From Escherichia phage PhiR70_1, in the sequence record PV340577: 48,757 nucleotides of DNA, one strand, 5' to 3'. Both the position numbers and the translations under genes were made by a program. Shown one piece after another: positions 4,469 through 5,238 of this stretch (positions within the stretch are counted from its first letter, which is position 1; each line of letters begins with the position of its first letter). Below the pieces are notes generated by a model. The model was not told the origin of the DNA. It did not search any database and saw only the letters and a program-made list of their open reading frames with translations.

Positions 4469-4543
4469 GGCTGAACTCCTGAAAATGGCTGTGAAAAAAT
4501 CGCCCGCGGAATGCCAGGCTGATTCGGAAAACAGGAAAGGGGA

Positions 4544-4834
4544 TTAGTGATTCAGACCGTTGCCGCGTCCGTCGAGAAAAACTTCCACGAGCAAGTCACG
4601 GGTATAAGTGCGCTCAATGCCGCGATGCAGATAAAGTCGTCCGCGTAAATTAGCTGATGCAGTCCAGGTACCATCTTTGCGTTTGACCAGCATTCCTGGC
4701 ATGACCGCACCGCGATTAACGGTCTGCGTTCCGTAATGTTGATGAACCATAAAAACTCCTGCCCGTAAGCTGGGCTGCTGAACATATAAAGACTTCTGCG
4801 CGTATTCAGGCGGTGGATGGCCGCCGGTTGTCAT
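4544..4834 (-). CDS. Hypothetical protein at the lambda kil/cIII position
   Basis: 96-aa ORF immediately downstream of the predicted pL leader; an overlapping alternative frame (4552..4785) exists; no family recognised. Confidence 0.3.
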   Translation of the reverse strand: MTTGGHPPPEYAQKSLYVQQPSLRAGVFMVHQHYGTQTVNRGAVMPGMLVKRKDGTWTASANLRGRLYLHRGIERTYTRDLLVEVFLDGRGNGLNH

Positions 4835-5027
4835 AACTAAGCCGCCTCGTTGAAGCGACTAAGGTATGAAATGTTGAGTTGATTTCAGCTGGTCACACCG
4901 ACGTTCACGCGTCCGTTTCATCCCTCGCACTCCCCGAAGCCTGCTGAAATTCAAGCTGCGGATCTAAGCGGTCATCGCAACGGTGAATCAGGTGGTTGCC
5001 GTATCGTTGTGTTGTTGCGATATGGTG

Positions 5028-5069
5028 ATAATAGCTATTGCTATTGGTGATATCAATACTTATTGCTAT
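5028..5069 (-). promoter_or_regulatory. Candidate OL/pL: two 14-bp operator-like sites overlapping a leftward promoter
   Basis: Sites ATAGCTATTGCTAT (5031-5044) and ATACTTATTGCTAT (5056-5069); on the minus strand -35 TTGATA (5051-5056), 17-bp spacer, -10 TATTAT (5028-5033); same motif recurs in OR. Confidence 0.5.
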
Positions 5070-5238
5070 TAGTTGATGTGTTTTGATATTAAATGTTTGA
5101 TAGCAAAAAGAATTAATTTTGTGACTTGCATCGCATAGCGATAACTGAAGTGAGGTCGTGGTGGTTTTTTGAACGGTTTGTGTGATGGGGGGAGGGCAAA
5201 AGAAAACCCGGCACGGTAGCCGGGAGTTATATTTGAAT

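Follow-up and report, generated by a model that had tools for sequence, protein, structure and literature searches.

The question raised by this locus is how a lambdoid phage expresses its early genes when the usual antitermination apparatus is missing from both early operons. The locus is the segment between the early left promoter (pL) and gam in Escherichia phage PhiR70_1 (sequence record PV340577), and the analysis covered the whole stretch of 48,757 nucleotides (nt), referred to here as the window, which is a complete lambdoid prophage of the Bievrevirus type. A preliminary description made from the sequence alone had proposed that the early operons contain neither an N-like antiterminator gene nor nut/boxB sites and that early gene expression relies on something else. 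Here, N, nut, and put elements were found to be absent, the one sizeable open reading frame (ORF) upstream of gam was identified as kil, the terminator that precedes kil in related phages was found to be missing, and a 115-nt core of the untranslated pL leader was found to be under purifying selection. We tentatively favor a model in which early expression would be largely N-independent by architecture and the core would be a regulatory 5′-untranslated region (UTR) of the kil operon.

Absence of Known Antitermination Elements

The ORFs between pL and gam were compared with Pfam and the PHROGs, and no N homologue was found in either. The same result was obtained in a six-frame phmmer search of the whole window, in which every stop-to-stop segment of at least 20 amino acids (aa) was a target and lambda N, P22-type N, phi80 N, and HK022 Nun were the queries; the best match (E = 0.22) lay inside bet. 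The RefSeq annotation of phage 4A7, which is ∼95% identical in the early left region, includes a Q-like antiterminator only, and no antiterminator besides Q was detected or annotated. The proposed lack of an N-like gene in the early operons is thus supported by the profile searches, the six-frame comparison, and the annotation of 4A7 alike, and it extends to small ORFs, among which an arginine-rich mini-ORF in the leader (see below) matched no N family.

Scans for nut sites were likewise empty in the pL and pR leaders, in agreement with the preliminary description. No boxA (CGCTCTT(T)A) was present at 4400–5100 or 7650–8100, and the window as a whole has 35 matches with at most one mismatch, as many as chance predicts (35). 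No boxB with a 5-bp stem and a GNRNA loop was detected in either leader by a scan that recovered the lambda nutL and nutR controls but that demands a purine at loop position 3, such that P22-type GACAA loops are missed and the BTP1 control was not recovered. Comparison of the pL leader with 12 kb of the pR transcript revealed no common word of 11 nt or longer. In the right operon, the cro stop codon (7909–7911) and the ATG of the ydaT-like gene (7936) are separated by 24 nt, as originally described, and nothing in this spacer is boxB-like. What had been overlooked is a 6-bp G+C hairpin (7902–7920, plus strand) that straddles the cro stop codon and holds it in a 7-nt loop; this hairpin is neither boxB-like nor terminator-like and has no partner downstream of pL.

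Rfam gave no match for 4100–8600 at permissive thresholds or for the whole window at gathering thresholds. Given that the put region of HK022 is itself unmatched in Rfam, this database is without a put family. A put covariance model was built from 10 RNAs (HK022 left and right, HK639, phiEt88 left and right, UPF_BP1 left and right, CobraSix, S9-5, and PdC23), and it scores real puts at 65–98 bits. With this model, the best match in the window had an E value of 0.5 and lay outside the pL leader, and scores were ≤0 bits when only 4740–5030 was searched. In 745 kb of loci, the training puts were the sole matches, and none lay in loci from relatives of this prophage. The put consensus (GAACGGC...GUCGG...GGCGGG...CAAU) of a ∼70-nt two-stem RNA was absent from the pL leader, and the segment UCGGGGAGUGCGAGGGAUGAAACGG, which is like put stem II by eye, was rejected as such on the ≤0-bit score. 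A put-like element in the leader, raised as a possibility in the preliminary description, accordingly finds no support in the covariance model.

Searches of the non-template strand of the leader for the ops element (GGCGGTAGnnT) yielded 2-mismatch matches only, the nearest of which (4753–4763) is the kil Shine-Dalgarno region. Loading of Q at pL was also considered and was rejected: the pL and Q-pR′ regions are not similar, their alignment scoring 22 compared with 20.7 ± 2.1 for shuffled sequences.

Organization of pL, the Leader, and kil

The order of elements on the minus strand is the terminator of the cI-moron operon, the left operators (OL) and pL, a ∼187-nt untranslated leader, kil, and lambda-type gam-bet-exo. 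When nine phages were aligned, the divergence between two immunity types was confined exactly to 5115–5022, and the sequences were near-identical again from 5021, which locates OL/pL and places the start of transcription at ∼5021. A promoter scan identified a sigma-70 pL on the minus strand with TTGATA as −35 (5056–5051) and TATTAT as −10 (5033–5028), or 10 of 12 consensus matches, and a ATTGCTAT-type motif was found both in the 5115–5022 block and between cI and cro. The OL/pL region is homologous to that of the P22-like phages ST104/BTP1. Approximately 150 nt of the leader precede the kil 5′-UTR. The first ∼36 nt are swapped for unrelated sequence in a third immunity variant, that of an O157:H7 prophage of CP-933P-like layout, and the invariant core is therefore 4986–4872.

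As had been noted, one ORF of at least 60 aa lies in a sensible position between the recombination genes and the toxin-antitoxin-chaperone cassette, namely the 96-aa ORF at 4544–4834 (minus strand). It had been described as of unknown type but can now be assigned to Kil: residues 20–96 match phrog_294, “Kil protein for bacterial septation inhibition” (E = 1.4e-37), over profile positions 4–80 of 83, the location between pL and gam fits, and a 68-aa Kil is annotated in relatives including 4A7 and HK225. The remaining codons belong to an upstream ORF that ends before kil in phi80 and HK225 and that indels have joined to kil in frame in PhiR70_1. Several relatives are frameshifted between the two, indicating that the fusion is not required.

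The left operons of phi80 and HK225 carry homologues of both kil and the kil 5′-UTR block, the latter consisting of a hairpin and the MTTGGHPP upstream ORF, and a 63-nt block around the start of the upstream ORF (4871–4809) has 95% identity to HK225 and 85% to phi80. In phi80, an annotated 98-aa N gene and then a strong intrinsic terminator stand immediately 5′ of the kil UTR; in HK225, gp38 and further genes are followed by a similar strong terminator just 5′ of it. By contrast, gene and terminator are replaced in PhiR70_1 by the 115-nt core, which has no terminator, and a 19-nt alignment gap marks the place where the terminator of phi80 and HK225 is missing.

The shared kil 5′-UTR (4767–4871, minus strand; L005 3001–3100; L004 3501–3640) includes a hairpin that overlaps the Shine-Dalgarno sequence of the upstream ORF and in which, by eye, one G-C pair is A-U in phi80. 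The upstream ORF, MTTGGHPP(P/T), contains a polyproline run. Together, the hairpin and the upstream ORF look like a candidate translational control element for the toxic kil. The hairpin was rejected as a nutL candidate, as it sits downstream of N and its terminator in phi80.

Purifying Selection on the Leader Core

A 162-nt query that contains the core (4860–5021) was found in 2210 of 5426 complete Escherichia coli genomes (∼40%), almost always at ≥95% identity and never annotated. Among 50,697 phage records, no homologue of the leader was found outside E. coli phages, and no paper containing its 16–18-mers was found in a literature search. One explanation for this uniformity is that the leader is a neutral scar of a deleted N-nutL-tL1 module that looks conserved owing to recent spread of kil-gam-bet. 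To separate selection from recent spread, the loci of the polymorphism sample were picked by an anchor at the kil start and not by the leader.

In this sample, 11% of sites in the core were polymorphic when all rows were included and 7% when recombinant rows were removed. The corresponding values were 62 and 33% at fourfold-degenerate sites of kil, 32 and 32% at those of gam, 47 and 31% at those of bet, and 47 and 17% in the kil-gam spacer. The core is thus 3–4-fold less polymorphic (7–11%) than neighboring fourfold-degenerate sites (31–48%), with Fisher p values for comparison with pooled fourfold-degenerate sites of 2e-11 for all rows and 2e-7 with recombinant rows removed. Nucleotide diversity was 0.026 in the core and ∼0.07–0.10 at fourfold-degenerate sites. 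Polymorphism below the fourfold-degenerate level indicates purifying selection, about as strong as that on the positions of kil that are not fourfold-degenerate, and on the strength of this 3–4-fold reduction we take the core to be functional. The adjoining kil 5′-UTR is equally constrained. The core is also less polymorphic than the kil-gam spacer, a difference that fades at the strictest filter (p = 0.22).

A neutral scar would be consistent with leader identities of 95–99%, like those of the flanking genes, with the absence of a structure signal, and with the free swapping of the first 36 nt with the immunity module. It does not account for the lower polymorphism of the core in a kil-anchored sample, where the contrast with fourfold-degenerate sites survives the removal of recombinant rows and the comparison with the spacer points the same way within the limit given above. 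We regard this explanation as improbable.

Folding of the Leader RNA

The folding energy of the leader was no better than that of shuffled sequence (z = +0.3 and +0.7), and the consensus fold of 59 variants was no better than that of column-shuffled alignments (p = 0.21). The predicted pairs contain 11 common polymorphisms, every one of them compatible with wobble pairing, against 7.6 ± 2.1 such cases in shuffled alignments (p = 0.06); none of the 11 is a double compensatory change. The sense strand also folds more stably than the antisense strand (−48.4 versus −39.0 kcal/mol). The pairing-compatible polymorphisms and the strand bias represent at most a hint of RNA structure in the leader. Covariation is without power here, as every copy comes from E. 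coli and identity is ≥95% throughout.

The first ∼21 nt of the pL transcript (5002–5022, minus strand) can form a short 5′-terminal hairpin with an A/C-rich loop. The same motif occurs at the start of the HK639 pL transcript (L013 3440–3462), ∼65 nt ahead of put, and the first ∼25 nt of the two are alike by eye. In addition, the first 8 nt of the transcript (AUCGCAAC) are perfectly complementary to 4981–4974 (GUUGCGAU), at the edge of the core.

An Arginine-rich Mini-ORF in the Leader

The leader contains an arginine-rich mini-ORF (MKRTRERR...), and antitermination by a protein was considered, whether by this peptide as a minimal N, by a read-through protein comprising the mini-ORF, the upstream ORF, and Kil, or by an unrecognized protein elsewhere. 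By eye, KRTRERR is like the arginine-rich motifs in the N proteins of lambda and P22, and GGAG is found 8 nt before the (A/G)TG at 4921. Among 62 unique variants, the stop codon (4861) is TAG in 17, as it is in the window, and CAG in 45, in which the frame continues through the upstream ORF into kil as a single frame of 139 codons from stop to stop; a 128-aa “Kil” is annotated in some records.

Several results argue against such a protein. The mini-ORF had no match to Pfam N_peptide (PF25694), for which the control N of phage BTP1 scores 7e-29, to the PHROGs, or to lambda, P22, or phi80 N or Nun, and a search of 5.8 billion proteins recovered no family, its matches being limited to deletion fusions and near-identical copies in E. 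coli. Of the 62 variants, 4 have ATG as the start codon and 58 have GTG, and the frame is often broken by indels, including 5-nt ones in several unique variants. Polymorphisms are not concentrated at third codon positions (five at position 3, four at position 1, and one at position 2), and no boxB-like target is present. The mini-ORF is probably not a conserved gene, as judged from these sequence comparisons. It was rejected as an N remnant on the lack of a family match, the start and stop polymorphism, and the frame-breaking indels, and its fusion through the upstream ORF to Kil was rejected as a required product in view of the TAG codon and the frameshifted relatives. Overall, a protein-based substitute for N is very improbable.

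Natural deletion derivatives (P0001–P0003; locus L141) were also observed in which a fusion joins the frame of the leader and upstream ORF to bet, gam, or orf61. Such prophages are decayed: kil and the recombination genes are gone, whereas pL and the leader have been retained.

Terminators along the Early Operons

In the right operon, comprising cro, the cII analogue, O, P, and ren, no strong intrinsic terminator was found between pR and ren. The only terminator candidates before Q (16188) are at 10925–10950, after emrE, and at 12878–12919, and both are modest. In the left operon, the sole hairpin intervening among kil, gam, bet, and exo after pL is the weak one at 4519–4502.

Between exo and xis-int, the hairpin at 2641–2623 is an exact 19-nt match to lambda 31267–31285 (locus L020 3768–3786). 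This position in lambda orf60a is reportedly that of tL3 in the mapping by Luk and Szybalski. The hairpin inside orf60a is present in 77 of 142 fetched loci, although these phages have no N to override it. Two further terminator-like hairpins follow in the same interval (Table 1).

Genomic Context

In its early left region, the window is 99.5% identical to Escherichia phage PhiR68_2 and, as noted, ∼95% identical to 4A7, which belongs to the genus Bievrevirus. The left arm is lambda-like, with int, xis, orf61/63/60a, exo, bet, and a short gam, and the right arm is DLP12-like, with emrE, ylcJ, ybcK, ybcL, ybcM, ybcN, ybcO, rusA, and Q. Phages of the same layout have been deposited as complete genomes (4A7, PhiR68_2, 1W, 3W, Perceval, IdasGreatGrand, and Turner), several with a named E. 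coli host. DLP12-type cargo at 10508–14498 and 16775–17857 breaks up the nin region and the interval from Q to lysis; its genes include an emrE-like SMR gene, ylcJ, a ybcK recombinase, a PEBP-family ybcL-like gene, and an AraC-type regulator. Also part of this cargo is a 360-aa ORF on the opposite strand between Q and the late terminator at 18287–18306, where 4A7 has a porin gene.

Upstream of pL, the place of rexAB between cI and pL is taken by a three-gene cassette (5239–6761, minus strand). Its members are the presumed toxin, a 136-aa ORF without a Pfam or PHROG match; an antitoxin of the MqsA type (PF15731, E = 2e-17); and a 167-aa protein that is weakly SecB-like (E = 0.008) and matches phrog_16879 (1.5e-23). 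The same site holds other cargo in relatives, namely GevT/GevA, HipA/HipD, SIR2, ASCH, or a lipoprotein. Such differing cargo at exactly the same site identifies a moron/defense hot spot, bounded by the conserved terminator at 5207–5224, which is kept in all relatives whichever moron precedes it. The spacer from this terminator to OL stays conserved whatever the immunity type or upstream cargo, and no ORF or motif was recognized in it.

Table 1. Coordinates of features in the PhiR70_1 window
Feature	Position	Strand	Remarks
Terminator-like hairpin and TTTTT	1374–1389	−	∼33 nt upstream of xis start
Terminator-like hairpin and T run	2031–2047	−	Between orf61 and TraR/DksA-like gene
Hairpin identical to lambda orf60a hairpin	2623–2641	−	Between exo and xis-int; −17.6 kcal/mol, z = −3.66
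kil-gam spacer, 75 nt, lambda-homologous	4469–4543	−	Weak terminator-like hairpin 4519–4502, then T6 run
kil, KilR-type cell-division inhibitor, 68 aa	4544–4750	−	ATG 4750, GGAG Shine-Dalgarno
Upstream ORF (MTTGGHPPP...), 28 codons	4751–4834	−	Fused in frame to kil in this phage
kil 5′-UTR hairpin	4841–4859	−	−11.6 kcal/mol, z = −3.35; common to phi80 and HK225
Arginine-rich mini-ORF	4859–4954	−	31 aa from TTG; 20 aa from ATG 4921: MKRTRERRCDQLKSTQHFIP; below ORF cutoff of preliminary description
Conserved leader core, 115 nt	4872–4986	−	Slot of phi80 annotated N gene and terminator, upstream of shared kil 5′-UTR
Leader 5′ segment, C-rich, G-poor	4987–5021	−	Travels with immunity module; positive GC skew on plus strand
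OL operators and pL	5022–5115	−	Promoter scan and nine-phage alignment
Spacer, terminator to OL, ∼90 nt	5116–5206	−	Alignment of nine phages
Intrinsic terminator, 6-bp GC stem, then TTTTCTTTTG	5207–5224	−	Ends operon of cI and toxin-antitoxin-chaperone cassette, upstream of pL
cI	6881–7573		Immunity region
cro, YdaS-type	7684–7911		Immunity region; stop 7909–7911
cro/ydaT-like junction	7902–7935	+	Hairpin over cro stop, then 24-nt spacer; no room for nutR or tR1
cII analogue, YdaT-type (ydaT-like)	7936–8481		Immunity region
Q protein	16188–16586		PF06530, E = 1e-53

Discussion

The left operon of PhiR70_1 resembles those of known systems in outline. The leader core lies in the same slot, first downstream of OL/pL, as lambda N/nutL (with nutR in the right operon) and P22 gp24; the gam-bet-exo-orf60a-xis-int arm, including the tL3 hairpin, is lambda-type, and OL/pL is homologous to that of N-carrying P22-like phages. 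PhiR70_1 differs from lambda in having no N-family protein, boxA, boxB, nutR equivalent, tL1, or tR1. Like HK022 with its putL/putR and HK639 with its putL-like element, it is a lambdoid phage that lacks N and has an untranslated element directly behind pL, a likeness of position only, whereas the put consensus and two-stem architecture are absent. In HK639 and CobraSix, the cro/YdaT-type right operon and the kil-gam order are as in PhiR70_1, and put follows pL; put was seen on the left only, with none in the fetched part of their right operons. The cI-moron-pL-kil and cro-ydaT-O layout is also that of CP-933P/Rac-type cryptic prophages, in which YdaS is Cro and YdaT is the CII analogue, and the same leader core is found in the O157:H7 prophage of CP-933P-like layout. 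Two papers describe the CP-933P switch formed by YdaS and YdaT (PMC8630535, PMC9986795), and a term search of PMC8630535 found no mention of antitermination, terminator, or N protein.

Equivalents of tL1 and tR1, the first terminators of the two operons, are absent from PhiR70_1, and the early genes nearest the promoters may therefore need no antitermination. Once repressor is lost, kil-gam-bet-exo on the left and cro-cII-like-O-P-ren on the right would be transcribed, Q would be reached by read-through of a few weak moron terminators, and xis-int would be expressed only as far as polymerase leaks past tL3 and two further hairpins. The conserved core would then be a local regulatory 5′-UTR of the toxic kil operon, acting through RNA stability, Rho, or translational control, and the equal constraint on the kil 5′-UTR and the core fits a local role in kil expression. 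Lambda nin5/byp derivatives, laboratory mutants of an N-dependent phage, show N-independent early expression, with the terminators between promoter and essential genes missing or weak. The architecture that may operate in PhiR70_1 from pR through to Q would be the same, but it occurs in a natural and very common lineage in which the tL3 hairpin is still kept on the left. We infer both that read-through would suffice and that the core has such a role, and hold the model with correspondingly limited confidence. In the preliminary description, early expression was suggested to rely on something other than N-nut; this is correct in that N-nut is absent, but a substitute may not be needed.

Several observations weigh against N-independence by architecture. 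The tL3 hairpin and two good terminator-like hairpins stand between exo and xis-int, and pL-driven xis/int in lambda need N to pass tL3. The presence of put after pL in HK639 and CobraSix, on the left only in the fetched loci, suggests that antitermination is needed in the left operon of this family. No motif for kil control was identified that would explain selection on the 115-nt core. Furthermore, Rho-dependent terminators are not predictable by the methods used, and the terminator absences reported here apply to the intrinsic type only.

The retention of tL3 and two more terminators, together with purifying selection on the core, makes a substitute device plausible but unproven. The core could be a new cis-acting processive antiterminator RNA, an analogue of put with unrelated sequence, that would stay bound to polymerase and carry it to xis-int. 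Consistent with this, it lies right after pL, in the slot of the phi80 N gene and terminator and of put in HK639 and CobraSix; purifying selection acts on untranslated sequence; the downstream terminators are retained, including a tL3 hairpin identical to that of lambda; the element occurs in the left operon alone, which also seems to hold for put in the fetched HK639 locus; and all 11 common polymorphisms at predicted pairs keep pairing in a sense strand that folds better than its antisense. Against it stand the put covariance score of ≤0 bits, the unremarkable fold (z = +0.3/+0.7) and consensus fold (p = 0.21), the p value of 0.06 for the pairs with no double compensatory change, the near-identity of copies confined to E. 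coli, which renders covariation powerless, and the equal conservation of the neighboring kil UTR. We consider such an RNA possible, and it is the main alternative to the favored model. It is doubtful that the 115-nt core represents, in ∼40% of E. coli genomes, an unrecognized class of nascent-RNA antiterminators that would license transcription from pL past tL3 and two terminators. The neutral scar and the protein-based substitute are both unlikely for the reasons given above.

N-nut and put are the textbook answers to early gene timing in lambdoid phages, and the present layout is without both. Its leader is nonetheless carried by approximately two-fifths of complete E. coli genomes, O157:H7 among them, as well as by phages with complete deposited genomes. 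If no early antitermination is needed, the lambda N circuit would be one option and not the lambdoid rule, and a large share of E. coli prophages would have their induction timed in a different way. If instead the selectively conserved leader acts as an RNA device, phages would have a second family, and only a second, of antiterminator RNAs that ride on the polymerase.

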